64,000 nt of DNA from a virus, in the IMG/VR virus record IMGVR_UViG_3300042485_001470, positions 31,082 through 95,081 of that record; one strand, given 5' to 3'. Shown here one piece after another: positions 23,462-54,855 of the stretch. Numbering within the stretch: position 1 is the stretch's first letter; every line of letters begins with the position of its first letter. The notes beneath the pieces were generated by a model. It ran no database searches and was not told where the DNA came from. It saw nothing but the letters and a program-made list of their open reading frames with translations. The position numbers were made by a program, and so were the translations under genes.

Positions 23462-23480
23462 TTATTTTTTTGTATATTTG
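23449..23480 (+). promoter_or_regulatory. Bacteroidota-type promoter (-33 TTTG / -7 TATATTTG) for tmRNA
   Basis: TTTG 23449-52, 20-nt spacer, TATATTTG 23473-80. A late-type TATTTAT follows at 23481. Confidence 0.7.
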
Positions 23481-23493
23481 TATTTATCAATAT

Positions 23494-23879
23494 GGGGGTG
23501 ACTCGGAATTGATTACAATGAGAATTGTAGTATCACATGTAGTGGGATGGTTCTCCAACCACTTTAATCTCGGAATCAACAAATAAACGCAGAAGAATTA
23601 TCTTCTTGGACCTTCGAAGATGCTATGGCATTCGTAGGTGCTGATTACGCTGTAGCAGCCTAATCAAACTCGGGTCGGTGCACATATAACCTAGGAACAG
23701 AAGTGTTTACAAAGGCTTTATTCGTTGAGCCCAAATCAATGAATTGGTGGAAACGCTGAACTAACCATTCGGCCCCAATTATTTTGGAAAGTGAATAAGA
23801 TTAAACTTTATCCTAAACATGTGAGACGTTGGTATTATGGTTACTTTGTAAGACATGGGTTCGAATCCCATCACCTCCA
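23494..23879 (+). ncRNA. ssrA: tmRNA (transfer-messenger RNA)
   Basis: 5' GGGGGTG pairs with 3' CACCTCC-A, giving the G3:U70 Ala identity pair. T-arm atggg-ttcgaat-cccat. Long-range helices tcacatgt/acatgtga and ttacaa/ttgtaa. Internal tag ORF ends YAVAA-stop. Confidence 0.93.
23589..23663 (+). other. tmRNA tag reading frame AEELSSWTFEDAMAFVGADYAVAA*
   Basis: Resume codon GCA preceded by aaaTAAAC (U at -5, A at -4). 24 codons to TAA. Confidence 0.8.
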
Positions 23880-23883
23880 CAAC

Positions 23884-23921
23884 AATCCCGAACTATTATT
23901 TGGTAGTTTGGGATTTTTTTT
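23884..23921 (+). terminator. tmRNA terminator (overlaps the next promoter)
   Basis: aatcccgaacta / tagtttgggatt stem plus T-run. Confidence 0.75.
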
Positions 23922-25255: not shown

Positions 25256-25858
25256 ATGAAAAAAATCAGTACCCTTATCGGTTTCCTACTTGTTTCTTTA
25301 ATTTCGTTTGGGCAAGATGTTAGAATTAAAAACGAAGTATTTGAAGTTCTTTATTCACAATCATTAGAACAACCTTTAGTAATTAAATATCGTTCAACTA
25401 ATAGACCTACAAATGTGAACAGAGGTACTATGGATTTTTACAAAGAACCAAACATTAAAACATCAGATGCGGAAGATTACGCTAAAAATATATACGATAA
25501 AGGACATGGTGCACCAGCTGCAACATTCTCTGATAATATGGTAAACCTAAAACAAACATTCTCATACTTAAATTGTATAATGCAAGACCAATACCTTAAT
25601 AGAGGTGAGTGGAGATTGTTAGAAGAACAAATCCGTAAATGGGATGATACTGAAAATATAACTGTACTAATAAAAACATTCTTTGATACTCCAGTAAAAA
25701 GAGTGGCAACTGGAGCAGCAATTCCATCTTACTTACAAAAACACATCTATTTTGAAACACAAAAGAAATGGAGATGTTATGTATTTCTAAATCAAAAACC
25801 AAAATTTCATTGGGATGAATTAGAAATGATATGCGAAGCTGAAGACCACAAATTTTAA
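25256..25858 (+). CDS. DNA/RNA non-specific endonuclease (NucA/Serratia type) with signal peptide
   Basis: YDKGHGAPAA (DRGH-type), TFSYLNC..Q...LNRGEWRLLEEQIR. N-terminus MKKISTLIGFLLVSLISFG-Q. Confidence 0.85.
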   Translation: MKKISTLIGFLLVSLISFGQDVRIKNEVFEVLYSQSLEQPLVIKYRSTNRPTNVNRGTMDFYKEPNIKTSDAEDYAKNIYDKGHGAPAATFSDNMVNLKQTFSYLNCIMQDQYLNRGEWRLLEEQIRKWDDTENITVLIKTFFDTPVKRVATGAAIPSYLQKHIYFETQKKWRCYVFLNQKPKFHWDELEMICEAEDHKF

Positions 25859-28800: not shown

Positions 28801-31800
28801 CCTCCACCGCCACCTCCTCCGCCGCCACTTCCTAAGAAGAAAGCAGGAGCTGTACCTCCTCCACCGCCACCTCCGCCACCTCCACCGCTTCCTAAAAAAG
28901 CAGGAGATAAAAGTGGTTGGGATGGATATGAAGAACCTGAATGGATAAAAAATGCTCCAAAAGGTTGGGATGATGATGCGGTTAAAAATAAGAGTGCTTG
29001 GGGTGATGAACCAATGCAAGAACCTGATTGGATGAAAGGTGGTTCTTCGTGGGATAAAAAGCCAATGCCTAAAGGTGAAACTCCACCTCCTGGTACTAAA
29101 AAAGCTGGAGCAATTCCACCACCGCCTCCACCGCCTCCACCGGGAGCTAAGAGTGCAAATAATAACGAAAATATACCACCAACCGATAAACAAGCAAATG
29201 AACAAATAGCTCAAGAAAGAAAAGGTTTAACTCATGAGGAAAATCAAGTTTATGAATTCTTAGAAGGAATGCCTGAAGAGCAAAGGGCAGAGGCAATTCA
29301 AAAAGCATTGGATGATAGAAGTTTGTTGCAAAAAGGATTGCAAGATACAATGGTAGGCGGTTGGTTTAAGAAGAAAGGGAAAATGTTGTCTAATGTATAT
29401 GATGGAATAAAGCAATGGTATAAAACAGGTAAAGTTGGTACTACTAAAGATTGTAGTGGTGCACCAGCTGGACCTCATGCAAATAAGAATGAAAATATAA
29501 AAGAAGATTCACAAAATAGACAAGACTATTTAGCATCTTTAGATAAGACGGGTAAAAAGAAAAAGAAAGCTGATGATAGTGATTGTATGGATGTGCATGT
29601 TGAGGACTATCAAAAAAGAGATAAAGATGGTAACTTAATGTACAAAAAAGAACCTGTATATGAAAGTGGAGAAAAACCAGACCCAAAAAACTTTGGACCA
29701 GATGGTGCATATTTCGGTGGGTTGGGAACTGGATACATAGGTCCTAGAAAAACTGGAACTGAATATGGTAATGCTTCTAAAGAAGATGCATTTAAAGCAA
29801 GTGAATTAGATTCTAAAACAGGATACTTTAAGAGAGATGGAAAATACTATGGTGTAGATGGTGAGGAAGTAAATGCGAAAGGACAAAAATTAGATGCAGA
29901 GGGTAATACAACACAAAAGACAGAAAGATGTTTCTTTTGTTTTCCTCCGGGAAAAAAGGTCCCAGTTACGCAAAAAGTTGCTGATTTGGAAGATGGTTTA
30001 ACCGCTGAACAAAAACATGCAGCTCATCATTCGGAACATGCTCAACATGAAAGAAAGCATGCGATGTGGCATTTAGGAATAGAAGCTTCATTGATAGTTG
30101 GTGGTGCATTAGCTGGCCCTATGATATTAGCTAAGATGGGAGTCGGTGGAGCAGCTGCTGGAGCTGGTTCGCATGGTGTAGCACAAGCAACTTCACAAGC
30201 CGCAACAGCCGCAGCTGAACATCACGGAGCATCTGCATTTGCAGCACACGTTTTAAAAGATTTTGGAAAGCATGCATTAGCAGAAACATTAGGAGTAACG
30301 AACCCTTATGCAGCAGCAGGGAGTGGGTTGGCAGCAAGTGCAGTTACTGGTGGTGTATTAGAATCATTTTGGAAAGATGTAGAAAAGTATAATTTATTAT
30401 CGGAAGATATTGATGGAGAAATGGATGAGAATAAAGGTAAAGATTTCTTAGAAAAAATTATGGTATTGATGATGGAGAAAATGAAAACTTACAAAATGAC
30501 TCCTCAGCAAAAGTTGGAAAGTATAAGAAAGTATAAATTTGAAAAAGCTGAAAACGAAAAGAAAAAACAAAAACAAGATAAATTAAAAGATTTGGCTAAT
30601 TTACTAAAAGAAAAAACAGCAAAGTCAAAACAAAATTCTATAAATCATTTTGTTGAATTTGCAGCTAAACGATTAAATTTAAAAGAAACTCCAAAAATTA
30701 ATTTAATGAGTGGAAATGAATTTAAAAATGAATTGGCAGCTTTGGGTGGGTATGACCCTTCTTCAAAAGAAATATTTGTTGCAACCGAAGGAAGATTGAC
30801 AGCTGATATTTTAAGAACTATTGCACATGAAATGGTACATAGAAAGCAAGAAGAAAAAGGATTCCTTAAGAACATTGATAAAGATGGTTCAGCTGGGTCT
30901 AAAATAGAAAATCAAGCCAATTCAATTGCTGGAATTTTGATGAGAGAATATGGTAAGATAAACAAACAAATCTATAACGAAAATACAAAAAAACAATTAG
31001 AATTAGTAAGTAATTTATTATTAGAGAAGGTTAATCGTTTTATTGATGAGGCTAAACCAAAGAAAGATGATCCTGATGTAAAATATATAGATGGAAAAGG
31101 AAAAGAACATACAATCAAATTTTCATCAGCAATTAAGTATGATGAAAAACATCCTGCTTATATAGCAGCTATGAAATTAAAAGATACTGGAGATAACTCA
31201 AATGATACCCAAACTGTTCAAGGTGCAGGATTGTTTGATGACCCAGAATATCAAAAAAGAATGGGAGCTGAAGTACCACCAACACAAACAACACCAACTG
31301 ATTCAGAAGAAAATCCGGAAGGATTGTATGACCCTAATGATAAATTACAATCGGCAGTTGTTGATGCAAAAAATCCAAAAGAATTATTTTCCGCATTAGA
31401 TGAATTAGGTAAAGATGAGGAAGATATAATGTTGGATAAGGTTAAAGCTGGGGCAGGTGGTCCTGTTGCATCAACTGGTGAAACTCTTTGTACTGAAGCT
31501 CAAACTAATATGATACAAGGTAGATATAATCCGAAGGAAGTTAGGAGTTCTACGGAATATAAAGCCGAATTGGCAAGTGTTAGAAATGTAATGAGTGGTA
31601 CTGATAAGAGAGCAAAAACTGCTCTTACTAAGGAATTGGATAATATTTGTGACAAAATGGGGTATTATAAAGAAGATGGTAACCCTGATTATGAATTAGC
31701 AATGGCTATGAAAGCCGAAGCAGATTTGTATATTAAACAAAATTTACCAGCTTTCAAAAAAACAAATGTAGCAAAAACTAAATTTAAAAAAGAAGAAGAT

Positions 31801-33201
31801 ATGGTAAGTTGGATGAAAGCATCATTCTATTCATCATATTCTTTAATAAATAATGGACCTGCTGATTGGGATAGAAAAAAGGGTAATGGTAGAGTAATGA
31901 AAGCTAATCCAAGAACACAAGGAGCTACAAAGCAAGTTTTATTAGATGGTTTAAAAAACGCAAAAACTCCTGAAGAAAAGGCTCATTATGAAAATCAATT
32001 AAAAGTTTGGAGTAAATTTAAAGGTTATCACGATACGTTTTTGGTTTACAAAAATGATAAAGGATTGGTTTCAGTATTTCATATATCAAATAAAAAAAGT
32101 GATGAGTTAGATGACCCTCAAAATAATACAACTCCTGAAACTAGACTTGCTAACTATATGGCAGCAGCTAGAGAAGCTAATTTAAGTCCTAAAGCAGCTA
32201 AAGCGGTAGCTAACGCACAATCAGTAGCTATGGCAGGTTCTGCTGATAATGATAATATTGCAAAGGGTGCTTGGAATGAAGTAGAAGATGTAAACTTAAT
32301 AACATCATTAGCCGGTAGATTACCTGCTAGAGGTCAAACTGATGTTAAAGATGAATATTATACTGATTTGAAAGGTGATAAATTAGTTAAAGATTGGTAT
32401 AAAAAGAAATATGGTAAAGATAAGTGGGAAGCAAAATGGAAGGCAGCAAAACCAAATGAAGTAATTGGAGTAGTGATGCAAATTGCAGAAGCACAAGATG
32501 ATATTTCAAAACTATCAGGAAACTTTACTAAATTTATGTTAAAGCAAGGTCAATTAGCACAAAGTGTATTTGCAAAAGCTCAATCTGGTATGAATGCAAA
32601 ACAAATTTCTCAAAGCTTTAACGGAATATATTCACCAAAAGAAATACAAGCTATTCTTGATAGTGAAACAATGAAAATGTTAGCTGATAAAAAAGCACAA
32701 CATGCTGCTGGTTTAGAAGGTGTACATAAAGGATTTATTACATCACTACATAAAGCAGATGGTACAAAGCCTGGTCATAGTGGTAAAAACGGACCTGCTG
32801 TTGAAACCTACGTTGCTGGTACGTTAAAAGCATTACATATTGATACCTACGTTACTAACTTTGATGAAAATATTGAGATTGAAATGGGTGGAGTTGGATG
32901 TAAACCTATTGATGTTAGGGGATGTATGGCTAGCCTATCTGGATTTAAGGGAGATATAACAACCCCAGAAGGAAGGGCGGCATTAAATACACATTTGGCC
33001 GAAAACGTAAAAGTAGATGCTGATTCAGATGCGGTATATCTTATTGGTAGTGATGGTAAGACTAGAACTTATTTAGCAAGTGATACTTGGAGACAGGCTG
33101 GTTCATCTAAAAAAATAGCAACTGGTTTTGGTAGTAATTTAAGAAAATGTTTAAAAAAGGCAGTTGGAAGTAGATTATCTAAAAAGAAAGCTAAAAAGTA
33201 G
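25858..33201 (+). CDS. 2447-aa multidomain protein (putative internal head/ejection polyprotein) with ParB/Srx-like domain, poly-Pro tract, hydrophobic segment and HExxH domain
   Basis: LKATQ...PIYVSRDGHVIDGHHRWAA, KKAGAVP(n) repeats, LRTIAHEMVHRKQ. ATG overlaps the nuclease TAA. Confidence 0.7.
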   Translation: MNMNLSELINEILSEWAYRVENGMPDPKNPTHLKELGIVLSEMGLSHIKDTLVENLLVETGKTPQKVVEAEKGNFTNPALNKSIKYKNDKGEDKEGLVGNLLRLPKEHPGRKAAEATLPADGTPERDSINKDLGGEGQPKKPEDGKGKEGGESGGGEDEKMKQAAAMFDPKVDPAMAARMNKEKEVQAQLAKDAEAQNEPPPTPKNQTTNKQLAKAAGFDNVGSWYNDLNKKAMSDDPEVASKAEKDLDTYEKNKVKDAQSTDDFNPIDSKDVAKEMPQADPETFGGDSDIPDGIEPEQLQKFNTDISKVAQQVADAKAKGEPAPNINLCDVTVPGTNLYCDDNLGIPRDQMPQFKGTAQPGSRAAGMDVDASGEVDTEPVFKEMLKEKGIKTLQTEIPADKLKATQQDLVGAKVVGMMGVLKDPNHPAFEKITAPIYVSRDGHVIDGHHRWAAIVAHNAANPDNQIPMKTTVLDMDIKDAIPMANKFAEDMGIAAKKADANKEAPTEQPSEPAKREPANNDPESKAQQFKGKSSGENIQTMEMEGGGFVYGTKHGNTAMVDDILDDVKSKIPKERWKDVVFVGEGGATGDSGEVEFNDEMDYAAPKFKEMGAGVDTWDGDDMDVHNDQSKLYQKQKEKTGFNDSQVKAGNWASMIGQGEGTDTMSPNDYLDDEGKQFLSDAAKEAGFPPIENWNEPTEQDKDTLYRLSFPEDNGDKPTKINDIQVAFNDARDENLIEKNKELTAQGKIPITIAGESHVDLVDKMTRKQKGASSEKLPEPEAPSEEDGGVVYSVGGGYYSDKPDGPAQYVATENVIQKVLIEGDINFSYLLFEAAVTKKTSKGKVVKLRTIKPKDQNKATAAAAAAKPQPPAKIVPPGVKQKPPVIAPPEVKPKSQAPAKIVPPGVKPKASVPPPPPPPPPPLPKKKAGAVPPPPPPPPPTVKKAGAVPPPPPPLPTKKAGAVPPPPPPPPPTAKKAGAVPPPPPPPPPPLPKKKAGAVPPPPPPPPPPPLPKKAGDKSGWDGYEEPEWIKNAPKGWDDDAVKNKSAWGDEPMQEPDWMKGGSSWDKKPMPKGETPPPGTKKAGAIPPPPPPPPPGAKSANNNENIPPTDKQANEQIAQERKGLTHEENQVYEFLEGMPEEQRAEAIQKALDDRSLLQKGLQDTMVGGWFKKKGKMLSNVYDGIKQWYKTGKVGTTKDCSGAPAGPHANKNENIKEDSQNRQDYLASLDKTGKKKKKADDSDCMDVHVEDYQKRDKDGNLMYKKEPVYESGEKPDPKNFGPDGAYFGGLGTGYIGPRKTGTEYGNASKEDAFKASELDSKTGYFKRDGKYYGVDGEEVNAKGQKLDAEGNTTQKTERCFFCFPPGKKVPVTQKVADLEDGLTAEQKHAAHHSEHAQHERKHAMWHLGIEASLIVGGALAGPMILAKMGVGGAAAGAGSHGVAQATSQAATAAAEHHGASAFAAHVLKDFGKHALAETLGVTNPYAAAGSGLAASAVTGGVLESFWKDVEKYNLLSEDIDGEMDENKGKDFLEKIMVLMMEKMKTYKMTPQQKLESIRKYKFEKAENEKKKQKQDKLKDLANLLKEKTAKSKQNSINHFVEFAAKRLNLKETPKINLMSGNEFKNELAALGGYDPSSKEIFVATEGRLTADILRTIAHEMVHRKQEEKGFLKNIDKDGSAGSKIENQANSIAGILMREYGKINKQIYNENTKKQLELVSNLLLEKVNRFIDEAKPKKDDPDVKYIDGKGKEHTIKFSSAIKYDEKHPAYIAAMKLKDTGDNSNDTQTVQGAGLFDDPEYQKRMGAEVPPTQTTPTDSEENPEGLYDPNDKLQSAVVDAKNPKELFSALDELGKDEEDIMLDKVKAGAGGPVASTGETLCTEAQTNMIQGRYNPKEVRSSTEYKAELASVRNVMSGTDKRAKTALTKELDNICDKMGYYKEDGNPDYELAMAMKAEADLYIKQNLPAFKKTNVAKTKFKKEEDMVSWMKASFYSSYSLINNGPADWDRKKGNGRVMKANPRTQGATKQVLLDGLKNAKTPEEKAHYENQLKVWSKFKGYHDTFLVYKNDKGLVSVFHISNKKSDELDDPQNNTTPETRLANYMAAAREANLSPKAAKAVANAQSVAMAGSADNDNIAKGAWNEVEDVNLITSLAGRLPARGQTDVKDEYYTDLKGDKLVKDWYKKKYGKDKWEAKWKAAKPNEVIGVVMQIAEAQDDISKLSGNFTKFMLKQGQLAQSVFAKAQSGMNAKQISQSFNGIYSPKEIQAILDSETMKMLADKKAQHAAGLEGVHKGFITSLHKADGTKPGHSGKNGPAVETYVAGTLKALHIDTYVTNFDENIEIEMGGVGCKPIDVRGCMASLSGFKGDITTPEGRAALNTHLAENVKVDADSDAVYLIGSDGKTRTYLASDTWRQAGSSKKIATGFGSNLRKCLKKAVGSRLSKKKAKK
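28588..28902 (+). repeat. Tandem poly-proline coding repeat (KKAGAVPPPPPP...)
   Basis: About six units with aagaaagcaggagctgt linkers and ccn runs. A further copy lies near 29098-29142. Confidence 0.9.
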
Positions 33202-44161: not shown

Positions 44162-44365
44162 ATGGCTATTTTAAGAGGGCAAACTCATCCTGCCGCGAAG
44201 TTGACAGATGAGCAAGTTCTAAACATCAGAAGATTATGGAGTATGGGCCACCGAAATTTAAAGGTGATTGCCCGTAACAACAAAGTTTCACCTGCCAATG
44301 TAATGAAGATAGTTCAACGTAAAACTTGGGCACATCTAAATGAATTTTGGAGTGGAAGCTTATGA
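44162..44365 (+). CDS. Small HTH DNA-binding protein resembling the C-terminal domain of HNH homing endonucleases
   Basis: RGQTHPAAKLTDEQVLNIR...IARNNKVS...KIVQRKTWAH. Stop overlaps the next ATG (ATGA). Confidence 0.6.
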   Translation: MAILRGQTHPAAKLTDEQVLNIRRLWSMGHRNLKVIARNNKVSPANVMKIVQRKTWAHLNEFWSGSL

Positions 44366-45135
44366 AAGTAGAAGGTAAACAATACTGCGATATCTCTAAA
44401 TTTTCTATTAGAGAAATTAACAAAAACATCGCAAAGGATATCATTGTCAATAACCATTATAGTGGGATATGGACGAAGGTATCCTATGCGTTGGGATTGT
44501 TTTACATATCCGATGATGAGCATAATTTTTTTAGTGGTGTAAACGAACAATTGGTTGGAGTTGCCTGTTATGGTGACCCGGTTGGTAGAAATGCAGGTGC
44601 ATCAATTTCCGAATTACTTCCTAGAGATGGTGTATTAGAATTGACCCGTTTATTTGTATTTGATGGATATGGTACTAACATTGAGAGTTGGTTCGTTGGA
44701 CAATCTTTCGAATGGTTAAGAACTAATGTACCTCGTATTAAAGCCCTAATATCCTATTCAGACCCAAACGCTGGGCACTTAGGTACGGTATATCAAGCTA
44801 CCAATTGGATATATCAGGGTAACAAAATTAGATGGTCGGATAGTTGGAGTTTTAAGTGGAGTGAGGATGATGAATGGCATCATTCTCGGACATCTTATGT
44901 GAAGTACGGAACGAATGACCCAAAGATAATTCAGACAATGGTTACAAGCCCATTCTGGATTAAAAGAGAACCCCGTAAGCACCGATATGTGTATATTCTA
45001 ACCAAAGATAAGAAGGAACGCAAAGCCCTCTTAAAATCGCTTAAACATGAGGTATTCCCATACCCAAAAGTAGAATTAGATATTATTGATGAAATCCATA
45101 AAATGGACCCAATAGATTTGGTAGTCTCAGGATAA
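44362..45135 (+). CDS. Mom-like GNAT DNA (adenine) modification protein, paralog 1
   Basis: NHYS, LELTRL, NIESWFVGQ, LISYSDPNAGHLGTVYQATNWIYQG, KHRYVY. Start at ATG 44362 matches the paralog N-terminus. Confidence 0.8.
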   Translation: MKVEGKQYCDISKFSIREINKNIAKDIIVNNHYSGIWTKVSYALGLFYISDDEHNFFSGVNEQLVGVACYGDPVGRNAGASISELLPRDGVLELTRLFVFDGYGTNIESWFVGQSFEWLRTNVPRIKALISYSDPNAGHLGTVYQATNWIYQGNKIRWSDSWSFKWSEDDEWHHSRTSYVKYGTNDPKIIQTMVTSPFWIKREPRKHRYVYILTKDKKERKALLKSLKHEVFPYPKVELDIIDEIHKMDPIDLVVSG

Positions 45136-45148
45136 TTTCGTATATTTG
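45117..45148 (+). promoter_or_regulatory. Bacteroidota-type promoter
   Basis: TTTG-N20-TATATTTG, 7 nt before ATG 45156. Confidence 0.7.
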
Positions 45149-45155
45149 TAATAAT

Positions 45156-45425
45156 ATGGCAGTATCTAAGAATCCATCCGAAAAACCTCGAAAGTTTGAA
45201 ATTGTTTACAAAGATGATGATGGCAGTGAATCTATATGGAAATATGATTTAGATAAATTTCCAAATGGACCTATATCAGTTGAGAACAAATTTCCTGCTG
45301 GGTATGATAAGATGATGAAGAAGCAACAAAAAGAAGCTAAGTTATCTAAATCACTTTCCGTATTAGAAAAAGCTAAAAAGGTTAAGAAGGAAGGTAAAAC
45401 ATTAGATAATAAAAACTATTGGTAA
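45156..45425 (+). CDS. Small basic hypothetical protein
   Basis: 89-aa Lys-rich ORF between the two Mom-like genes. Confidence 0.65.
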   Translation: MAVSKNPSEKPRKFEIVYKDDDGSESIWKYDLDKFPNGPISVENKFPAGYDKMMKKQQKEAKLSKSLSVLEKAKKVKKEGKTLDNKNYW

Positions 45426-45428
45426 AAT

Positions 45429-46229
45429 ATGAAAGTAGAAGGTAAACAATATTGTGATGTATCTAAAGTGTATGTTGCACCAATAGCAAAATCAATTGCC
45501 AAAGATATAATCGTAAAGAAACACTATACGCATGCTTGGACAGCTTGTAGATACGCAATCGGAATATATTACAAATCAGAAGATGCTAATACATTCGATG
45601 GTGATAAACTTATAGGTTGTTTAATCTATGGTTTTCCTGTTGGAGCAAAAGCATCCACTTCTATTTGTGAAGGATTAACCAAAGATAACATTTTAGAATT
45701 GACACGATTGTATTGTGATGATGGGTATGGTTCTAATATCGAAAGTTATGCATTAGGGCAATCTTTCAAATGGTTAAAAGAAAACGATAAAGCAATTAAA
45801 GTATTACTATCATACGCCGATAATGGACAAGCTCACTTAGGAGGAATATATCAGGCTACCAATTGGATTTATCAAGGATTATCTACGGATATTGCATTGA
45901 TGCCAAATTGGGGTATATCATTACACAAAGACCCATATCAATGGATTCATAGTAGAACTGTGTTTTCAATGTGGGGTAGTGGCAACTTAGCACACTTACA
46001 AATGGAAATCGGTAAGCAAGGATATAAAGAGTTTTGGAGAAGGGAAGAACCACCAAAGCATAGATATGTTCAGATACTTGCGCAAGATAAAAAAGAAAAG
46101 AAGGATTTGATGAAACGATTGAAGCACGAAATCAGACCTTATCCAAAAGATACCGCATCATACAATACCGAAGTGGTACATCACCTAACTACATACGAAG
46201 CACCTGAAGGGGCTGAAAACTTTTGGTAA
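45429..46229 (+). CDS. Mom-like GNAT DNA (adenine) modification protein, paralog 2
   Basis: KHYT, LELTRL, NIESYALGQ, LLSYADNGQAHLGGIYQATNWIYQG, KHRYV. Confidence 0.8.
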   Translation: MKVEGKQYCDVSKVYVAPIAKSIAKDIIVKKHYTHAWTACRYAIGIYYKSEDANTFDGDKLIGCLIYGFPVGAKASTSICEGLTKDNILELTRLYCDDGYGSNIESYALGQSFKWLKENDKAIKVLLSYADNGQAHLGGIYQATNWIYQGLSTDIALMPNWGISLHKDPYQWIHSRTVFSMWGSGNLAHLQMEIGKQGYKEFWRREEPPKHRYVQILAQDKKEKKDLMKRLKHEIRPYPKDTASYNTEVVHHLTTYEAPEGAENFW

Positions 46230-46233
46230 TATG

Positions 46234-46258
46234 TAACTCATTGATACTCAATCAGTTA
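46234..46258. repeat. Imperfect palindrome TAACTCATTGA-TAC-TCAATCAGTTA
   Basis: 11-bp arms with one mismatch, just upstream of the promoter at 46278. Confidence 0.7.
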
Positions 46259-46277
46259 GAAAAAAGTACTCAAAATG

Positions 46278-46309
46278 CTTGGTAGTTTCAGTTATTTTTC
46301 GTATATTTG
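46278..46309 (+). promoter_or_regulatory. Bacteroidota-type promoter driving the nuclease-GT-GT-PolB operon
   Basis: CTTG-N20-TATATTTG. Confidence 0.7.
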
Positions 46310-46347
46310 TATATAAACAAAATTTAAAACCATAAAACACATAAAAA

Positions 46348-48210
46348 ATGTCACAACACTTAAACAAAGAAGCAAAGGCACTTATTGAAGAACTTATCGC
46401 ATTCTTTGAGCATCCCATAAACAAAAGAATATTCATTTCAAGTCTTGAAGATATAAGACCCTTATATAGAGGACATGCATCTTATAAAAATTTAGTTGCA
46501 CACATATTTAATTCCTCTTGGAATAGGCATCCTAATTTTGATAACCCATCTGTTAGAGCTAGTAAGTTAGGATATGTGATGAGGCTAGGTACGGGACTTG
46601 CATCAATAAACCAAATACCAATCAGTTTTTTAATAGATACAGTATCACCTATTAAAAATTTCTTATTAAAAGATAGAGGGCATATTTTGGAAATAACTTG
46701 TTGTTTATATAATGAGAAAATGTGGAAAACTTCCGAACTTGAAGAAATTGTAATAAATGAAATAAAATATTTAGAAGCAGCTCAGAATAAAACATCCGAT
46801 AGAATAAAGGCTCTCCAAATATTATCAGATGTTAAAAACTTCATTAAACAAACTGATAGTGAAATGATGAGTTCCGGAATTGTTGATAAAACAAAAAGAC
46901 TTGTATCGTTGCAAGAAATATGTGATTCGGTTCCTGATTTTAATTTTAATTTAAATAAAACTGATTTATCAATTGAAGTTAAAAAAGAAAGTATTCCTAC
47001 CCATATTAGAGAAATCCTTCAAATTAACAATATCAATAATAAGTGGATGGATGCTCAATTAGCTTGGCTTAATTTTTGGGCATATTGTTTTGATAAAGAT
47101 AATAACTCGGAATATATAGATTCTAAGTTGGAATATGAAAAACTAATATCTTTGTTTGAGCAAGACAGTACATTTAATGGTGATTATGATAAAAAGAGTA
47201 ACTATCCATTGATGGCTAATTCTATTACAGACTATTGTAAAAAGTTAAGTGAGGGTTCTATTATAGTTCCATTGAGTTTAGTATCAATTGATGCTAGTAC
47301 ACAAACATTAGACGATGTTGCATCTAAATTAGAAAAAGAAACGGAATCGGCATTAACATCGCAATATAAAAATTTGTATGATTTAAAAATTACAAAAAAA
47401 CAATTTGAGAAATATAAATCAGAATATAAAGCTATTATAGAGCAACCACATTGGAAAACTTTAAAAGATAAAATTGATAAATTAGTAAAAAAATACACAT
47501 CTCCAAATAGGGATTTGGAAAATTTAAAACACACTAATATTTTACATATAAGTTATGGTGGTGCTGCTCTCATCGCATGTAGACGTTTAATAATAAGCAA
47601 GGGTAACAAAGGTAGAACATCACCTGCTCATATTGAAAGAATAGTTAAAGATTTTTGCAATAATTTACACAAAAGAATTGAATCGATTTGTGAAGCCGGT
47701 ACATATTTTCCTGGAGTTGCTAAGAAATCATCCGCACGTGTTATCTATACAATAGGGTATGTTTACGATGAAATGATGAAGCAAAGTACATCGGATATTA
47801 AAATGACAGAGCAAGAAGTATATGAATATCTATTGGAAGATATTAAACAGCACTTAAATGGACAGACAAAATTTAGTGTTGTTAAACTTACATTACCTAA
47901 CTACAATGGTGATACTTTGGAAACAACACAAATAGATTTCGAAGATTTGCAACGAAGTAGAGCCGGTTTTGATTTGGGCCACAAACTTCAAACAACTGGA
48001 GATTTTACAATTGATAATTGTTTTATTCAGGAAAAACATCATAACAGGTCATATCATAATGTTGACCACATTACCGATACGATTGGGTATTGGAAGTGGT
48101 ACTCTAAAGTAAACCTTGAAATTGTTAATAATAAAAAAGACTATTTTATTAATAACGATATGATAGATGTTGTAGCAGACGCTAAAAAACTAAATGAAAG
48201 ATTTAATTAA
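46348..48210 (+). CDS. 620-aa protein: possible degenerate DUF262/GmrS-like N-terminus and C-terminal HNH-like nuclease
   Basis: C-terminal FDLGH...G.FTIDN..IQEKHHNR fits the HNH betabetaalpha motif. N-terminal WNR...IPI...LLKDRGHIL loosely parallels DUF262 YQR/PIP/DGQQRL. Confidence 0.45.
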   Translation: MSQHLNKEAKALIEELIAFFEHPINKRIFISSLEDIRPLYRGHASYKNLVAHIFNSSWNRHPNFDNPSVRASKLGYVMRLGTGLASINQIPISFLIDTVSPIKNFLLKDRGHILEITCCLYNEKMWKTSELEEIVINEIKYLEAAQNKTSDRIKALQILSDVKNFIKQTDSEMMSSGIVDKTKRLVSLQEICDSVPDFNFNLNKTDLSIEVKKESIPTHIREILQINNINNKWMDAQLAWLNFWAYCFDKDNNSEYIDSKLEYEKLISLFEQDSTFNGDYDKKSNYPLMANSITDYCKKLSEGSIIVPLSLVSIDASTQTLDDVASKLEKETESALTSQYKNLYDLKITKKQFEKYKSEYKAIIEQPHWKTLKDKIDKLVKKYTSPNRDLENLKHTNILHISYGGAALIACRRLIISKGNKGRTSPAHIERIVKDFCNNLHKRIESICEAGTYFPGVAKKSSARVIYTIGYVYDEMMKQSTSDIKMTEQEVYEYLLEDIKQHLNGQTKFSVVKLTLPNYNGDTLETTQIDFEDLQRSRAGFDLGHKLQTTGDFTIDNCFIQEKHHNRSYHNVDHITDTIGYWKWYSKVNLEIVNNKKDYFINNDMIDVVADAKKLNERFN

Positions 48211-48509
48211 TGAAATTTGATAAAACAAAAAGTGAAATAGTATATCATACTCCATCATTTAAAGATGGTTGGATTACTGTTATTGCCGAAGAATGTAAAG
48301 CAAATAATCAAAGAATGGTATTAATAATACCAACTTGTAAAAAATATTCATATCAAATCAATAAATCGTTTTCTATTTTAGGGGATGATTTATTGATATA
48401 TGAAATGGCGATGGGAATGGGTGTAGTGTTAGAATCCCGAGCAAAGAAATATGTAGAATATCATAAAAATAGTAAACTATATGAAAAAAATCCATTTTTT
48501 AAGTATTGA
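48210..48509 (+). CDS. Hypothetical protein
   Basis: 99 aa, TAATG-coupled to the upstream gene and overlapping the downstream GT. Confidence 0.55.
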   Translation: MKFDKTKSEIVYHTPSFKDGWITVIAEECKANNQRMVLIIPTCKKYSYQINKSFSILGDDLLIYEMAMGMGVVLESRAKKYVEYHKNSKLYEKNPFFKY

Positions 48510-49230
48510 GACGGATATACATTCTAACATAGAAAAAGATTTAATTGAAAGTACTAGAATTAATAGTATTGACTTGAATATAATTGGTAGAGGGTATAAA
48601 TGGCAAGGATTCGTTACTAAGTTTAAAATCTTAAAAGAATACCTTCCTACAATTGAAGCTGATTTGGTTTGTTTAACGGATTCGCGTGACGTATTATATA
48701 TGTCAGATTCTAAAACAATTTATAATACATTTATAAAAAAATTCGATAAAGATTCTATTGTATTTAATGGAGAAACTAATTGTTTTCCAGAAAAAGATTT
48801 TGCACCATTACATCCGCATCAAAATAAAAAATATAAATATTTGAACTCTGGTTGTGTAATTGGTAGCAAAAAATTATTAATTGAAGTAGTTGATAAGTGC
48901 TTGGAGTTGTATGAAACTTGTAAAATAAATGATGACCAATATCTACTTCAACAAATATTTTTAAGTGGAGAATATGGTGATAGATTTACTATTGATTATA
49001 ATTGTGAGATATTCCAATGTATTTGGGATGAGGAATATGGTAGAAGTAATAATTTTGATTTAGTATATTCTAAGGAAGAAATCTTTAATAGATTAACTGA
49101 TACATACCCATTAATATTTCATTATCCCGGCCCAACGTGTACCGGTTCTCAGGTTTGGAAAATTCTTAATAGAAGATATTATAAAATTTCAAACGATTCG
49201 TATTACAAACAAAAGAAAAATAAAAAATAA
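48481..49230 (+). CDS. GT-A glycosyltransferase resembling the PLOD/LH3 GT domain
   Basis: W.G..TK..IL..YL, V.LTDSRDV, F.GETNCFP, YLNSG..IG, DDQ, IDYNCEIFQ, FHYPG. Confidence 0.75.
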   Translation: MKKIHFLSIETDIHSNIEKDLIESTRINSIDLNIIGRGYKWQGFVTKFKILKEYLPTIEADLVCLTDSRDVLYMSDSKTIYNTFIKKFDKDSIVFNGETNCFPEKDFAPLHPHQNKKYKYLNSGCVIGSKKLLIEVVDKCLELYETCKINDDQYLLQQIFLSGEYGDRFTIDYNCEIFQCIWDEEYGRSNNFDLVYSKEEIFNRLTDTYPLIFHYPGPTCTGSQVWKILNRRYYKISNDSYYKQKKNKK

Positions 49231-50343
49231 ATGAAAGTATTAGTAATTCCAAATTACACAAACTTTGGCTCTAACAAAGATATAAATAGAGATTCATTTT
49301 TGCTTGTATTTAAAGCATTTTTAGATAACACTAAAATCGGTAAGGAGTGGGAATTTGTATTACCGTATCCAGATATGAATAACCATCCTGGCATTATTAA
49401 TCAATTCGAATATCCGAATGTATCACTTCGTAGGATGGACAGTTTAGATTGCTTTCCCCCTAAAATGAGAGTAGATTATCCGTATAAGTTTTTTAGTAGA
49501 CTAGTTGAAAAAGAACAATTCAATTTAATATGGTCACATTTACCTGAATGGACCCATGAATATAAAATTACTCGTATCTATAATAAGACTCAACCTATTA
49601 TCGGTTACTGCCATTGGTGGGAAATAAAAGATAATGGTGCACGAGATGATAATTCATTTTGGCGAAATATTAGAGGTATGTTGGATATGAAAGTATGTGG
49701 GGTAAACTCCCAATGGGTTAAAGATTTAGTTCTTAAAAGAGCAGCTGAAGATTTTCAACCTCATATTATTGAAAAGTTAGATGCAATTATTCAACCTTGG
49801 TATTTGGGTACGGATGAATTTGTAGAACCAGCCGCATATAAAAAGAAAACAATTGTATTCAATCATAGAGAAGGAATCTATACAGGTTCAGAGTGGTTCT
49901 TTGAAACTATGGATGAACTATGGAATGAAAGACAGGACTTTGAAGTATGGACTAGTTTAAAGGATATGAAAAAACCATACACAAAATATATTGGACATGC
50001 TGATAGAAGTGTATATATGAATCAATTATCACAAGCACATTTTGGTGTAGGGTGTTTCCAAACATATTCTGCTTGGAGTATGAGTACAACTGATGGACTT
50101 AGTAGGGGTGTACCATATCTATTACCAAATGGATTGTGTTATCCTGAAATGGTTGGTAAAGATTATCCACTTCTTTACGATGGTAAAGCTGAGTTTAAAG
50201 AAAAGGTAATTGGTTTATTGGATGAAACAATTGAAAGACCTGATGTAAGTGCTATTGCCAACGCATTACTATGGGAAAACTCATTAAAGAGTTGGGATAT
50301 TGAAAACAATTTTATTAATATGGCAAGAACATTTATAGATTAA
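49231..50343 (+). CDS. GT-B (GT4-like) glycosyltransferase adjacent to DNA polymerase
   Basis: IWSHLPE, YCHW, IVFNHR, WSMSTTDGLSRGVPYLLP...YPEM (GT-B nucleotide-sugar binding region). Confidence 0.65.
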   Translation: MKVLVIPNYTNFGSNKDINRDSFLLVFKAFLDNTKIGKEWEFVLPYPDMNNHPGIINQFEYPNVSLRRMDSLDCFPPKMRVDYPYKFFSRLVEKEQFNLIWSHLPEWTHEYKITRIYNKTQPIIGYCHWWEIKDNGARDDNSFWRNIRGMLDMKVCGVNSQWVKDLVLKRAAEDFQPHIIEKLDAIIQPWYLGTDEFVEPAAYKKKTIVFNHREGIYTGSEWFFETMDELWNERQDFEVWTSLKDMKKPYTKYIGHADRSVYMNQLSQAHFGVGCFQTYSAWSMSTTDGLSRGVPYLLPNGLCYPEMVGKDYPLLYDGKAEFKEKVIGLLDETIERPDVSAIANALLWENSLKSWDIENNFINMARTFID

Positions 50344-50344
50344 T

Positions 50345-52867
50345 ATGTATCAAAACTGTTATTATCAAAGAGAGAAGAATTTAGTACACATTTGGGATGA
50401 TAAATTAGGTTATCGTTCATTTCCATATACAAGATATGCGTATGAAAGGAGCCAAAACGGAGAATATACTTCTTTGTATGGTGATAAGCTTAGTAAGATT
50501 TTCAAATTTAAAAAAGATGATCCTGATTTATTTGAATCGGATGTACCCGAAACCACTCGTATATTAGTAGATGGTTATACCGATTCGGATATTCCATCGG
50601 AAGGGCATGTTATCCTTACATACGATATTGAGTGTGAGATGGATAGTGGTTTGCCTGATGTTGAGAAAGCGGAGAACGAACTTACAGCCATAGGTTTGCA
50701 CGATTCCGCAACTGACCATTATTGGGTTCTTATTATGGACAAAGATGGTAAGATGCAGGAAAGTAATAATGGTAATCGTAGTGTTATTCCTTTTAGAGAT
50801 GAGAGGGATATGTGTATGAAGTATCTTTCATTATACGAATATATCAATCCTACAATTGTAACGGGATGGAACATTGATTACTTCGATACTCCGTACCTAT
50901 ACAATCGTATTAAAAGAATATTGGGTGTTAAACATGCTAATAGATTATCACCTATTGGAGAATGTTTCTGGTCACCATATCGTAAAAGATTCTTTATGGC
51001 TGGTGTATCTTATTTAGATTACATTGGATTGTATAAATCTTACACTTATGTTGAGTTGGATAACTATCGTTTGGATACGGTAGCTATGAAAGAATTGGGT
51101 AGAGGTAAGGTAGAATATGCTGGTAACTTAGATGAGTTATTTAAAACCGATATTGAAAAGTTTATTGAGTATAACTTGGTAGACGTACAATTGGTGGTTG
51201 ACATGGAACGTAAATTACAATTCGTAGATTTGTGTAGAGGTATCTGCCACGCCGGACATGTACCCTATGAAGATTTTGTTTATTCATCTAAATTCTTAGA
51301 AGGTGCGATGTTATGTTACCTTAAAAGACAGAACATTGTAGCACCAAACAAACCTGCCGATAGACAAGAGATGATGCAGGCATTGAGAGATAATGAGCAA
51401 GAGAAATTCATTGGAGCTTATGTGAAGGCACCTATTGTTGGTAAATATGATTGGATATATGACTTGGATTTAACTTCACTATATCCATCAATCATTATGA
51501 CTACAAACATTTCACCAGAAACTAAAGTAGCTAAGATTAGTAATTGGGATGCACAAAAGTTTATGAAGGGTGAGATTGATACTTTTAATATTGGTGAGAA
51601 AACTATTACAAAAGAAAACCTTAGAAAGTTATTAGATGAAAGTAAATATGCAGTATCATCTAATGGTGTATTATATACAACGGATAAAGTAGGTTGTATT
51701 CCAGCTATCTTAGATTTATGGTTTGACCAAAGGGTTGAGTTTCGTAAGTTAGAGAAAAAATATGGTGAAGCTGGAGATAAAGAAAAATATGCATTCTATA
51801 AGAAAAGGCAGTTGGTTCAAAAGATTTTGTTGAACTCCTTATATGGAGTATTAGGATTACCTGCGTTTCGTTTCTATGATGTTGATAACGCTGAGGCCGT
51901 AACCCTAACAGGTCAGACGGTAATTAAATCTACTGCGGAAATGGTAAACATTAAATACAATAAAGAGTTAGGTAAGAAAGGTGAAGATTATAATATCTAC
52001 ATCGATACGGATTCGGTATTCTTTTCAGCAGTTCCATTGTTAGACCATAGATATCCTGAATGGAGAGCTGAAGATGATAAGGAAATTGCATTAAAGGTAG
52101 ATGCTATTGCTGGTGAAACGCAAGATTACCTAAATAGTTTCTATGATGTATTAGCAGAAAGAGTATTTAATGTAGCAAAAGAAAAACATAGATTCCAAAT
52201 CAAAAAAGAATTCGTAAGTAGAAGTGGTATTTGGATTGCTAAGAAAAGATACGCTCAATGGATTATTGCGGAGAATGGAATCCCAACCGATAGATTGGAT
52301 GTTAAGGGATTGGACGTAGTTCGGTCATCATATCCAGCAGAATTCCGTAAGTTTATGAGTGAGATTCTGATTTCAATTCTAAGAGGTGATGGTGAGATGA
52401 CATTAACTGATAGAATTTATGATTTCAAAAAATCGTTATCTACTATGAATGTTGTTAGTATAGCTAAGAACTCTGCAGTAAAAGAAATATCAAAATACAT
52501 TCCAAAGAAGAAAGATAATAGAGCAATGTTCCAATTTAATAGTGGAACTCCAGCGCACGTTAAAGCAGCAATTGCACATAATCAATTGTTGGTTCACTTC
52601 AAATGCGCAGCTAAGCACGCTCCTATGAGAGATGGTGATAAGATTAAGTGGGTATATTTAAAGCAAAATCCATTTGGATTAGATGCTGTTGGTTTCAAAG
52701 GACATGATGATCCTGAAGAAATAATGGACTTGGTGAGGACGTATATCGATTATGATAAAATCTTCGAAAGGGAATTATTGAAGAAACTGGAGGACTTCTA
52801 TGGGGCTTTGGGCTGGGGTGCAGTACTTTCCTCACAAAAAACCGCTGAACAATTCTTTTCTTTCTAA
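50345..52867 (+). CDS. Family B DNA polymerase
   Basis: Exo motifs YDIEC, GWNIDYFD, YNLVDV. Pol motifs DLDLTSLYPS, KILLNSLYG, YIDTDS, KKRY, KGLDVVRS. Confidence 0.96.
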   Translation: MYQNCYYQREKNLVHIWDDKLGYRSFPYTRYAYERSQNGEYTSLYGDKLSKIFKFKKDDPDLFESDVPETTRILVDGYTDSDIPSEGHVILTYDIECEMDSGLPDVEKAENELTAIGLHDSATDHYWVLIMDKDGKMQESNNGNRSVIPFRDERDMCMKYLSLYEYINPTIVTGWNIDYFDTPYLYNRIKRILGVKHANRLSPIGECFWSPYRKRFFMAGVSYLDYIGLYKSYTYVELDNYRLDTVAMKELGRGKVEYAGNLDELFKTDIEKFIEYNLVDVQLVVDMERKLQFVDLCRGICHAGHVPYEDFVYSSKFLEGAMLCYLKRQNIVAPNKPADRQEMMQALRDNEQEKFIGAYVKAPIVGKYDWIYDLDLTSLYPSIIMTTNISPETKVAKISNWDAQKFMKGEIDTFNIGEKTITKENLRKLLDESKYAVSSNGVLYTTDKVGCIPAILDLWFDQRVEFRKLEKKYGEAGDKEKYAFYKKRQLVQKILLNSLYGVLGLPAFRFYDVDNAEAVTLTGQTVIKSTAEMVNIKYNKELGKKGEDYNIYIDTDSVFFSAVPLLDHRYPEWRAEDDKEIALKVDAIAGETQDYLNSFYDVLAERVFNVAKEKHRFQIKKEFVSRSGIWIAKKRYAQWIIAENGIPTDRLDVKGLDVVRSSYPAEFRKFMSEILISILRGDGEMTLTDRIYDFKKSLSTMNVVSIAKNSAVKEISKYIPKKKDNRAMFQFNSGTPAHVKAAIAHNQLLVHFKCAAKHAPMRDGDKIKWVYLKQNPFGLDAVGFKGHDDPEEIMDLVRTYIDYDKIFERELLKKLEDFYGALGWGAVLSSQKTAEQFFSF

Positions 52868-52871
52868 AAGA

Positions 52872-52903
52872 TTTGGTGGTTTCAGGTATTTTTCGTATAT
52901 TTG
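52872..52903 (+). promoter_or_regulatory. Bacteroidota-type promoter
   Basis: TTTG-N20-TATATTTG. Confidence 0.75.
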
Positions 52904-52942
52904 TGTATTATAAACTTTAAATAAATTAAAACTAAATTCGTT

Positions 52943-53638
52943 ATGAACAAAAGTAAATTCGATGGCTTTATCAATCGTTACAACCTTGGCGGTGAGATTG
53001 AATCCGTTATGATTAAATCTGATGATAGTAATCTATCTGTAAGAATGATTTCCGATGACAAAACCTTATTAGGTGATGTTACTGTGGTAGAAGGTGATTT
53101 CCCTAATGGTGAATTCGGTATCTATACTACATCTCAATTGAAAGGATTATTGAGTGTGTTAGATGAGGCAATTTCAGTTGAAGAAGTGACTGGAGCAGTT
53201 AAGTTCTCTGATAAAGGAACTAAGGTACAATATATGTTAGCAGCACCATCGGTGATTCCTGCAGTACCTGATTTGAAAGCATTACCACCATTTGATGTGG
53301 AGGTAACATTGAATGATGACTTTATTAATAAGTTCATCAAATCTAAAGGAGCGTTATCTGATGCAGATACATTCACATTCACTTCTAAAGCTGGTAAATC
53401 TGAAATAATTTTAGGTTATTCTTCAATCAACTCAAATAGAATCTCTATTGATGTTGCTACCAATTCAACCGAAGATATTGAACCAATTGCATTTTCTGCA
53501 AAGTATTTGAAAGCTATCTTAATGGCTAACAAAGGTTCTAAATCTTCTTCATTGAAAATCTCATCTAAGGGATTATCACACGTATCATTTGTTGATGGAG
53601 ATTACACTTCAAACTATTACTTAGTAGAAATTAAATAA
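52943..53638 (+). CDS. Sliding clamp (gp45/PCNA-like)
   Basis: 231 aa, FGIYTTSQL..LL, FSAKYLKAIL, KISSKGL, NYYLV. Sits between PolB and the clamp loader. Confidence 0.75.
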   Translation: MNKSKFDGFINRYNLGGEIESVMIKSDDSNLSVRMISDDKTLLGDVTVVEGDFPNGEFGIYTTSQLKGLLSVLDEAISVEEVTGAVKFSDKGTKVQYMLAAPSVIPAVPDLKALPPFDVEVTLNDDFINKFIKSKGALSDADTFTFTSKAGKSEIILGYSSINSNRISIDVATNSTEDIEPIAFSAKYLKAILMANKGSKSSSLKISSKGLSHVSFVDGDYTSNYYLVEIK

Positions 53639-53643
53639 TTATT

Positions 53644-54855
53644 ATGAGCTTTTGGGAAACTGAACCACAAAAACCTGTCTTTGACTTTGAATCTGAAAAG
53701 AGAAAGTTAATAGAAAATATGGACTATCTGATGACAATGTCTGTGCAAGAACAAACACTATACAAAAAGTGGGTGGAATTGCAAGAACCATCAATGATTC
53801 AGGCTAAAGCCCAAATCGCATCGTATTATGACTCTCAATGGAAACCAACTGATATCAACAATAAGGAGCTAACGATAAAAGAAATTGAATCGTTAGACCC
53901 TTACGTTGAGATTGTGGAAGACCCTAAAGAATCTACTAAATGGGCAGCGGTAAGACGTATGATTCATACAATGGATTTTACAGCAAACCCTGGCCGTAAT
54001 GTAAAGATTAATGTAAAGGATAGAGTAAGTGGAAAACTATTAGGACAGATTTCATTAGCATCCGATGTAACAGCTATGGCAGTTAGAGATAACTTCATTG
54101 GTTGGACTAAGGATAATAAGTTTGTTGATGGTAAGTTGAACAATACTACTATTGCCTCTACTATTGTATGTACTCAGCCATTAGGATACAATTTCTTAGG
54201 TGGTAAGTTAATCGCTATGATGACAACTACGCCGGAGGTTAGAGCATATTGGAAAGAGAAGTATAAGAACGTATTGATTGCAGTAGGTACAACATCCCTT
54301 TACGGAATTCATTCACAATACAATGGTATTCCTTTATTTAAAACACTTGGAGAATCTGCTGGTAAAATCAGTATGAAGCCGGATGATAAATTCTATGACC
54401 CTTGGCATCAATGGATTAAGGAAAATCATTCAGAGTGGTATGATGAAAACATTACTAGAGAAAGAGCTCGTAATGGTGCTAATATGGGATACGAAGCTAA
54501 TGGACCTGTTAGTGGTATCAAACAAAAGATATTAGGAAAAATTTTCAAAGAGTGTAGTATTAAAGCTAACGAATACCATCATGGATTTAAAAGAGGTGTG
54601 TATATGGCTATGATGTATGAGAACGGATGTGAATTCCTTCGTAACGAAATCACCGAAGATAAATTAATCATCAAAGATAAATTTAAGCAAGGTACTGAAT
54701 ACATTAACAAATGGTGGAAGAAACACGCAATCAGTAGATATACAAAACTGCATGATGAAGGAAGGATTAAACCCGAACACTTATTCTACATAGATGCTAT
54801 TGGAATTAGTTGGGAAGAAATGAAAGCTAAATACCTATCAGAAGTAGGAAGATAA
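53644..54855 (+). CDS. DUF4338 / Druantia DruA-like protein
   Basis: PGRN..I.V.D..SGKLLG.ISLAS, RDNFIGW, QPLGYNFLGGKLIAM, WKEKY, TTSLYG..SQYN, LGESAG. Confidence 0.7.
   Translation: MSFWETEPQKPVFDFESEKRKLIENMDYLMTMSVQEQTLYKKWVELQEPSMIQAKAQIASYYDSQWKPTDINNKELTIKEIESLDPYVEIVEDPKESTKWAAVRRMIHTMDFTANPGRNVKINVKDRVSGKLLGQISLASDVTAMAVRDNFIGWTKDNKFVDGKLNNTTIASTIVCTQPLGYNFLGGKLIAMMTTTPEVRAYWKEKYKNVLIAVGTTSLYGIHSQYNGIPLFKTLGESAGKISMKPDDKFYDPWHQWIKENHSEWYDENITRERARNGANMGYEANGPVSGIKQKILGKIFKECSIKANEYHHGFKRGVYMAMMYENGCEFLRNEITEDKLIIKDKFKQGTEYINKWWKKHAISRYTKLHDEGRIKPEHLFYIDAIGISWEEMKAKYLSEVGR

Follow-up and report, generated by a model that had tools for sequence, protein, structure and literature searches.

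Paired Mom-family genes and a GT-B glycosyltransferase gene form a conserved core in the replication operons of an uncultured T4-like phage clade

Results

The window analyzed here is a 64,000-nucleotide (nt) stretch of viral DNA with which the 95-kb IMG/VR virus record IMGVR_UViG_3300042485_001470 (estimated completeness, 53%) ends. Its source is an uncultured T4-like phage clade of water that is abundant in metagenomes; the nearest cultured phage is Microcystis phage Mel-JY01, at 51.5% identity in the family B DNA polymerase (PolB). Our subject is a run of genes at 44162–54855, all on the plus strand, in which two genes of the Mom family, MomA and MomB, are followed by a GT-B glycosyltransferase gene, PolB, the sliding clamp and a DruA-like gene. 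These genes are set in a T4-type replication cluster that holds RecA, a flap endonuclease, a DnaB-like helicase, both ribonucleotide reductase (RNR) subunits and thioredoxin and, further along, PolB, then the sliding clamp, dUTPase, clamp loader and a PD-(D/E)XK nuclease. MomA, MomB and GT-B, with the DruA-like gene nearby, are a conserved core inside these replisome operons.

The initial annotation of this DNA proposed two Mom-like genes, and profile searches agree. MomA (44362–45135, +) and MomB (45429–46229, +) are Mom-family GNAT proteins that match PF25680 with E values of 1.2e-43 and 3.5e-44 (149.6 and 151.3 bits against a curated cut-off of 27.1), belong to PHROG 1384 and find the solved structure of Mu Mom (PDB 8bv8) at E values of 3.7e-11 and 4.2e-6. 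We place the MomA start at a conserved ATG at 44362; the listed open reading frame (ORF) begins at 44347 with a TTG. In Mu, Mom attaches a glycine taken from Gly-tRNA to N6 of adenine in double-stranded DNA, and this adduct then becomes carbamoylmethyl-adenine by rearrangement; the enzyme requires R111, S124, R151 and a helix-turn-helix (HTH)-like insertion, and H58, Y59 and Y159 are important (PMC13219725). In an alignment to 8bv8, MomA keeps the equivalents of H58-Y59, R111, S124, D149 and Y159. The catalytic Arg and Ser, the H-Y pair and the Tyr that the paralogs share with the Mu enzyme are invariant in both lineages across 16 diverse sequences, and the Asp equivalent to D149 is kept in MomA and most MomB sequences. 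Each lineage is conserved throughout the phage clade. The main difference between them is the segment after YQG, an insertion that sits where Mu Mom has its HTH-like DNA-contacting insert; because this insertion differs between the paralogs, we infer that MomA and MomB would both be active, each in a DNA context or on a target of its own.

Two small ORFs accompany the pair. A 67-amino-acid (aa) HTH-like protein (o67; 44162–44365, +) overlaps the MomA start with its stop codon (ATGA), as com overlaps mom in Mu; it has a tblastn match in most related loci whose upstream sequence is long enough and always lies directly before MomA. A Com-like role was nevertheless rejected, the Cys zinc-finger pattern being absent: unlike Mu Com, the small upstream protein is HTH-like and not a Com-type zinc finger. 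Between the Mom genes, an 89-aa basic protein with no assigned function (o89; 45156–45425, +) is found in closer relatives only. As a separate observation, MomB ends in x-F-W (46221–46229) in every relative examined, PolB always ends in FF(S/A/G/D)F (52857–52867) and the 89-aa ORF of the window ends in N-Y-W; these tails could be candidates for docking on the clamp.

A phage promoter motif, TTTGGTA...TCGTATATTTGTA, divides the locus into predicted transcription units. It has 10 clean intergenic copies in the window, all on the plus, coding strand (at 23469, 23919, 34976, 36041, 36132, 39275, 45137, 46298, 52892 and 57344), and its core gives 18 matches in the window where 1.4 are expected. Three copies fall within the locus: one before the 89-aa ORF and MomB (45118–45150, +), one heading the operon that ends with PolB (46279–46311, +) and one before the clamp and DruA-like genes (52870–52905, +). 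The second corresponds to the single promoter that the initial annotation had put at 46278 ahead of a gap-free gene run; the TTGGTA-17-TATATT element at 46279–46307, which scores 9/12 on a generic promoter scan, turns out to be part of the longer repeated motif. The run itself comprises a 620-aa orphan (46348–48210, +), a 99-aa protein (48210–48509, +), a GT-A glycosyltransferase (48481–49230, +), GT-B (49231–50343, +) and, as the final gene, PolB (50345–52867, +), each overlapping the next or lying at most 1 nt from it. We accordingly predict, from these motif copies and gene spacings, units that end in o67–MomA, that run from P(45137) through o89 and MomB, from P(46298) through the 620-aa, 99-aa, GT-A, GT-B and PolB genes, and from P(52892) through the clamp, DruA-like and following genes. 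PolB matches PF00136, PF03104 and PHROG 262 (E = 1e-182), and the clamp (52943–53638, +) matches PHROG 223 (E = 5e-16); together with the PF14236 and PADLOC DruA matches given below, these agree with the PolB, clamp and DruA identities first assigned, and that of dUTPase is likewise confirmed.

To follow the neighborhood across relatives, we scanned IMG/VR with the GT-B alignment, which gave 80 loci, and scored these by tblastn with the window proteins. The order o67–MomA–(o89)–MomB–slot–GT-B–PolB–clamp–DruA, in which the slot is the interval between MomB and GT-B, persists in relatives whose GT-B identity is as low as about 55%. MomB lies no more than 5 kb upstream of GT-B in 57 of the 59 loci with enough flank, and DruA lies downstream of GT-B in all 61 that could be judged by the same measure (61/61); in one subclade, DruA comes directly after GT-B, ahead of PolB. 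Mom, DruA and GT-B are all absent from Mel-JY01, and their joint retention across divergence, set against their joint absence in this outgroup, is informative. The embedding of the Mom pair and GT-B among replisome genes proposed at the outset is thus a deeply conserved neighborhood with predicted co-transcription. Co-occurrence across related phages, which had been suggested as a check, is seen for MomA, MomB, GT-B and DruA in conserved order and not for the slot gene or the 99-aa/GT-A pair, which are optional.

GT-B, the conserved core gene directly 5' of PolB, has two Rossmann-like domains in GT-B topology and a GT4-type fold over its full length. It matches no Pfam glycosyltransferase (GT) family at E ≤ 0.01 and, with a profile, no PDB sequence; 366 metagenomic homologs were found. 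Its structural matches include the DNA arabinosyltransferase of phage HY126 (rank 11), GTs of SP-15 and a 'DNA alpha-glucosyltransferase'. The absence of a hydroxymethylase that the initial annotation reported for the window extends, for the ThyA family, to the whole 95-kb record, which has no match to PF00303; a relative that is 97% complete has none either. ThyA is present, in canonical and high-scoring form, in four other complete relatives, and ThyX is in none. A search for TET/JBP also found no match, but its control matched nowhere either. Because a ThyA-family enzyme was not found in the record or the 97%-complete relative, the ThyA of the four others is canonical and ThyX is lacking, the usual hydroxymethyl-pyrimidine acceptor is unlikely.

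The second glycosyltransferase, GT-A, is of the PLOD/LH3 type, as first proposed: it matches PF25342 at an E value of 1.1e-27 (97.3 bits against a cut-off of 27) and, in the PDB, the solved mimivirus R699 (9dyt; 2e-16) and LH3 (1e-7). The 99-aa protein always occurs together with it, and the two form an optional cassette, separate from the slot gene, that is present in a minority of related loci; a diverged version of 109 aa and 229 aa occurs in others.

The interval between MomB and GT-B is highly variable among related loci. Several relatives have 7 nt there; in others the interval is filled by a gene of one of three large families that are unrelated to each other, the 620-aa type (about 590–680 aa), one of about 505 aa or one of about 398 aa, and in some loci it additionally carries small ORFs or a GIY-YIG/NUMOD3 homing endonuclease (such genes lie at 1075–1965 of locus L049 and 6367–7296 of locus L052). 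Its alleles are exchanged while the flanks stay near-identical. In locus L005, MomB is 97%, the 99-aa ORF 98% and GT-A 94% identical to the window, whereas the 620-aa protein is only 52% identical; in all, this protein is 52–54% identical to the allele of relatives whose flanking genes are 83–98% identical. The slot gene may also be missing from loci that still hold Mom, GT-B and DruA. The 620-aa gene and the 99-aa/GT-A pair, which had been taken as fixed members of one system, are optional and swappable accessories.

Linkage between the slot gene and GT-B nevertheless outlasts rearrangement. One genome is ordered RecA–FEN–658-aa protein–GT-B, with the Mom genes about 18 kb away; in locus L113, a member of the 620-aa family is paired with GT-B; and a distant lineage related to pelagiphage-like contigs has a tight trio of DruA, a 617-aa protein and GT-B, with no Mom found on its contig fragments of 31–46 kb. 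Such trios of a DruA-like gene, a 605–617-aa slot-family gene and a 447–450-aa GT-B lie at 5784–10200 of L114 and 5770–10164 of L110; both have a weak HD-domain protein directly 3', and a peptide deformylase lies 5' (scanned in L114). The slot gene is replisome-cluster cargo that favors the position ahead of GT-B and is dispensable and swappable; being dispensable, it is therefore not the maker of GT-B's substrate. Of the earlier proposal of a nuclease beside modification genes, what stands is that a nuclease-like gene lies between the Mom genes and GT-B. Because slot alleles swap independently of near-identical Mom and GT neighbors, a matched, lock-and-key restriction-modification pair is unlikely and is not supported.

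The 620-aa protein belongs to a narrow family, with 7 close matches and 45 profile matches. Residues N59-R60, D109-G111, N227 and W233 are invariant across its very divergent members, pointing to conservation of an active or binding site, and N566-R567 is invariant within the closer subfamily. The motifs of the family run in the order N-R, D-x-G, N..N.W and G-H/DN/HNR. The same order is seen in the ~505-aa family of the same slot, whose motifs LQR..W, DGQHR, TNIGEPW and EGDH..GN..NL..N.RKS constitute the classical signatures of DUF262 and HNH, with an invariant His and an invariant last Asn, and whose Pfam matches are weak (HNH, 0.0037; GmrSD_N, 0.82). An Atlas feature search with the 620-aa protein gave 0.85 for clusters of restriction enzymes and HNH proteins; we treat this as a lead only. 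By analogy, the 620-aa protein is probably a much diverged nuclease, and we do not assign it to GmrSD.

The DruA-like gene (53644–54855, +) encodes a conserved DruA-family (DUF4338) protein of unassigned activity. It matches PF14236 at an E value of 5.3e-19 (68.9 bits against a cut-off of 27, with 14/14 relatives matching), PADLOC DruA at 6e-16 and PHROG 19197. In this match, well above threshold, it resembles the DruA of type I Druantia; unlike that system, the window has no DruB–DruE partners beside the gene, its neighbors being the clamp and dUTPase, and a regional PADLOC scan gave DruA models only. Homologs occur in the Pelagibacter phages Mosig and HTVC008M, and many Synechococcus T4-like phages carry a DruA-like gene between clamp-loader genes and regA/PolB, as at 6677–7828 of Synechococcus phage S-CAM9 (L098). 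DruA-like structures in Synechococcus phages were already noted in the Phold preprint (10.1101/2025.08.05.668817). The window gene shares its replisome-cluster location with these genes of Kyanoviridae and Pelagibacter phages and differs from them in that it lies, in some relatives of the window, directly beside GT-B and the slot gene.

We did not adopt a reading of the DruA-like protein as a third Mom-like GNAT. An hhalign comparison with Mom gave a probability of 0.9%, with shallow alignments, and the leads toward a GNAT are an Atlas feature match of 0.83 to GNAT-phage-like and one GenBank 'mom' label. The labeled entry is PQ898602.1, where the DruA-like gene of a T4-like cyanophage at 134000–134773 is annotated 'methylcarbamoylase mom'. 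Separately, the DruA-like protein has 3196 metagenomic homologs; because the best 120 of these are all 94–99% identical and mostly fall in separate 90% clusters, they point to a very abundant, microdiverse phage population.

Discussion

Most of what the initial annotation observed is confirmed, and its interpretation is supported in part. The reading that we favor, tentatively, is of a conserved Mom-based DNA-modification island in replication operons, with GT-B possibly adding a sugar and a swappable conflict gene alongside; gene identities, folds, promoter motif, synteny and slot turnover are the observations on which it builds, and its substrates and activities are all proposals. MomA and MomB, as old paralogs, would most likely modify adenine with an aminoacyl-derived adduct, each in a sequence context or on a target of its own. 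The phage-only GT-B, co-transcribed with PolB, would most likely add a sugar. The target that we favor for it is DNA, because no hydroxymethyl-pyrimidine pathway was found, and possibly the adduct made by Mom. Where present, the 99-aa/GT-A pair may add a second sugar. In the slot, the 620-aa protein would act as a nuclease, diverged but GmrSD-like in layout, against hosts or competing phages, and its gene would be dispensable cargo. The DruA-like protein would be the product of a replisome-cluster gene common to other marine T4-like phages, a gene that some lineages carry in linkage with GT-B and the slot gene.

Parts of this arrangement have precedents. Multiple Mom paralogs per phage, and Mom plus a nuclease as a phage-borne restriction-modification-like system, have been published (PMC7824862). 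In the jumbo-phage fusions of Mom to restriction-fold endonucleases (Iyer et al. 2021, PMC7824862), momylation protects the phage DNA and the linked nuclease attacks host or rival DNA, a division of labor that the window could share; unlike those fusions, its nuclease-like gene is separate, optional, of another, unclassified family and exchanged independently of Mom, and a glycosyltransferase lies between this gene and PolB. The window also differs from Mu, where Mom is encoded in the late operon of a transposable phage: here, two ancient tandem paralogs with different inserts lie in the replisome cluster of a lytic T4-like phage.

A GT-B-fold enzyme in a T4-like phage likewise recalls the T-even alpha/beta-GTs and the arabinosyl-5-hydroxycytosine phages (HY126, RB69; PMC13326640), and the optional second GT of the window could extend a sugar as in that type. 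The window differs from that type in that no ThyA-family hydroxymethylase was found in its record (sugar-nucleotide pathway genes were not searched for). For the slot, the DUF262-HNH proteins of the GmrSD, BrxU and SspE type are the nearest parallel: the 620-aa protein is similar to them in length and in the order of four short motifs, and a second family of the same slot position has canonical DGQHR and HNH motifs. We found no literature linking Mom to a glycosyltransferase.

Mom chemistry, from aminoacyl-tRNA to DNA, was not solved until 2026, and then for one enzyme; this clade keeps two diverged Mom proteins and a private glycosyltransferase in the polymerase operon, with no hydroxymethyl-pyrimidine pathway found. 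If the sugar goes onto DNA, purine hypermodification would gain a new class, and the clade would be a source of new DNA-modifying enzymes and modification-sensing nucleases. The swappable slot would offer a natural experiment in phage–phage or phage–host conflict, and the DruA-family link a handle on an unexplained defense protein. In its fullest form, the proposal would be of a new base, in which the aminoacyl or carbamoylmethyl adenine adduct of Mom is glycosylated by GT-B and extended by GT-A in some strains, the slot nuclease reads this mark or those of rivals, and DruA takes part in the same chemistry. We regard this full version as unlikely; if true, it would give a function for the DruA of Druantia as well.

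A number of observations weigh against the favored reading, and we take them part by part. For the Mom pair, the essential R151 of Mu is not kept, being N in MomA and G in MomB, in a loop whose alignment is uncertain. For synteny, the loci that we compared are relatives of one another, and their co-occurrence counts partly reflect shared descent and not independent events. The DruA-like gene is not specific to the module, because Kyanoviridae and pelagiphages commonly have it in their replisome clusters, and no Synechococcus or Pelagibacter phage was among the organisms listed in a search of cultured phages with the Mom proteins.

For the glycosyltransferases, action of GT-B or GT-A on DNA is something that we infer. 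The nearest solved structures to GT-B are small-molecule and lipid GT4 enzymes (MshA, BshA, sucrose-phosphate synthase, PimA/B and WaaG), DNA glycosyltransferases known from phages come no nearer to it in rank than many other GT4 matches, and a 55%-identical homolog sits in a small, unrelated phage contig without Mom or DruA. Only the Mom pair, then, might modify DNA, with the GTs acting on the host envelope or a polysaccharide, on a metabolite or on a phage or host protein, and placed in the PolB operon for early or middle expression. This would fit those structural neighbors and the small phage, as well as the protein-hydroxylysine (PLOD/R699) type of GT-A, the reading of cyanophage GT clusters as polysaccharide-modifying (PMC7824862) and the failure of the ThyA-family search to find an acceptor-making enzyme. 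It does less well with the company that GT-B keeps: the gene stays with PolB, DruA or the slot gene through at least four arrangements, down to about 40% identity, and is missing along with Mom and DruA from Mel-JY01, which has a separate GT cluster. On balance, we find this alternative somewhat doubtful; were it correct, the locus would amount to a tandem Mom pair and a plasticity hotspot, both ordinary.

The conflict-gene part of the favored reading meets a similar challenge. In two loci, the 620-aa family lies beside an AAA_5 ATPase and the clamp, without GT-B. Added to the three unrelated large families, empty slots and GIY-YIG/NUMOD3 genes at one place, and to allele swaps between near-identical flanks, this could mean that the slot is a plasticity hotspot that gathers selfish or defense cargo, including homing-endonuclease-like genes, and that the 620-aa gene is functionally unrelated to Mom and the GTs. 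A mere hotspot would sit uneasily with a family still found directly 5' of GT-B where the Mom genes are 18 kb off and in the distant trio with DruA, and with a 620-aa gene that shares a promoter and a gap-free run with GT-B and PolB. We rate it, too, as rather less probable than the reading that we favor.

The initial annotation had labeled the 620-aa protein DUF262-like/HNH, and this label was not confirmed: 28 family members and 10 distant ones gave no match to GmrSD_N/DUF262 or HNH/DUF1524 at E ≤ 1 and, at lenient thresholds, scattered chance matches to Pfam only; the protein and 37 relatives found no relevant Pfam, PHROG, PADLOC or PDB profile, PDB profile searches with three alignments of the family returned nothing meaningful, and no match was found among cultured phages by megablast or tblastn. 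An AlphaFold2 model from 8 sequences was poor (pLDDT, 51.5), and a wide VIA fold search with it gave helical-bundle matches only. Compared by hhalign, the 620-aa family and the ~505-aa family with DGQHR and HNH motifs show no relation (probability, 0.3%). DGQQR is absent from the 620-aa family, with an invariant D-x-G in its place (KDRGH in the window protein), and the putative HNH His is present in 15/28 aligned members and replaced by Q, R, K or E in 13/28. The order of the motifs is what is left in favor of the label, and 'nuclease' is a putative designation, because the DUF262 and HNH profiles do not match and the His is found in only 15/28.

The protein might instead be a DNA-binding or anti-defense factor, for example a decoy or inhibitor, with the remnant of a ParB-like/HNH layout, as the DRGH in place of DGQQR, the His replaced in 13/28 relatives and the missing nuclease profile or fold would allow. 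The residues N59-R60, D109-G111, N227 and W233, invariant across very divergent members, and the intact DGQHR and HNH motifs of the ~505-aa family in the same slot speak against such a remnant, as does, as a lead only, the Atlas match to restriction and HNH clusters; we consider a non-nuclease improbable.

Other features of the record

Within the replication cluster, the RNR genes of one subclade (L064–L072) are only 30–40% identical to those of the window, against 70–80% for the adjacent replication genes, which suggests that the RNR of this subclade has been replaced by a different one. The region 5' of the replication cluster holds two giant ORFs, of 2770 aa (1607–9919, +) and 2447 aa (25858–33201, +). 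A phage tmRNA lies at 23494–23880 (+), with a tag peptide ending in ...YAVAA; two of the promoter motif copies flank it, that at 23469 just upstream and that at 23919 just past its end.

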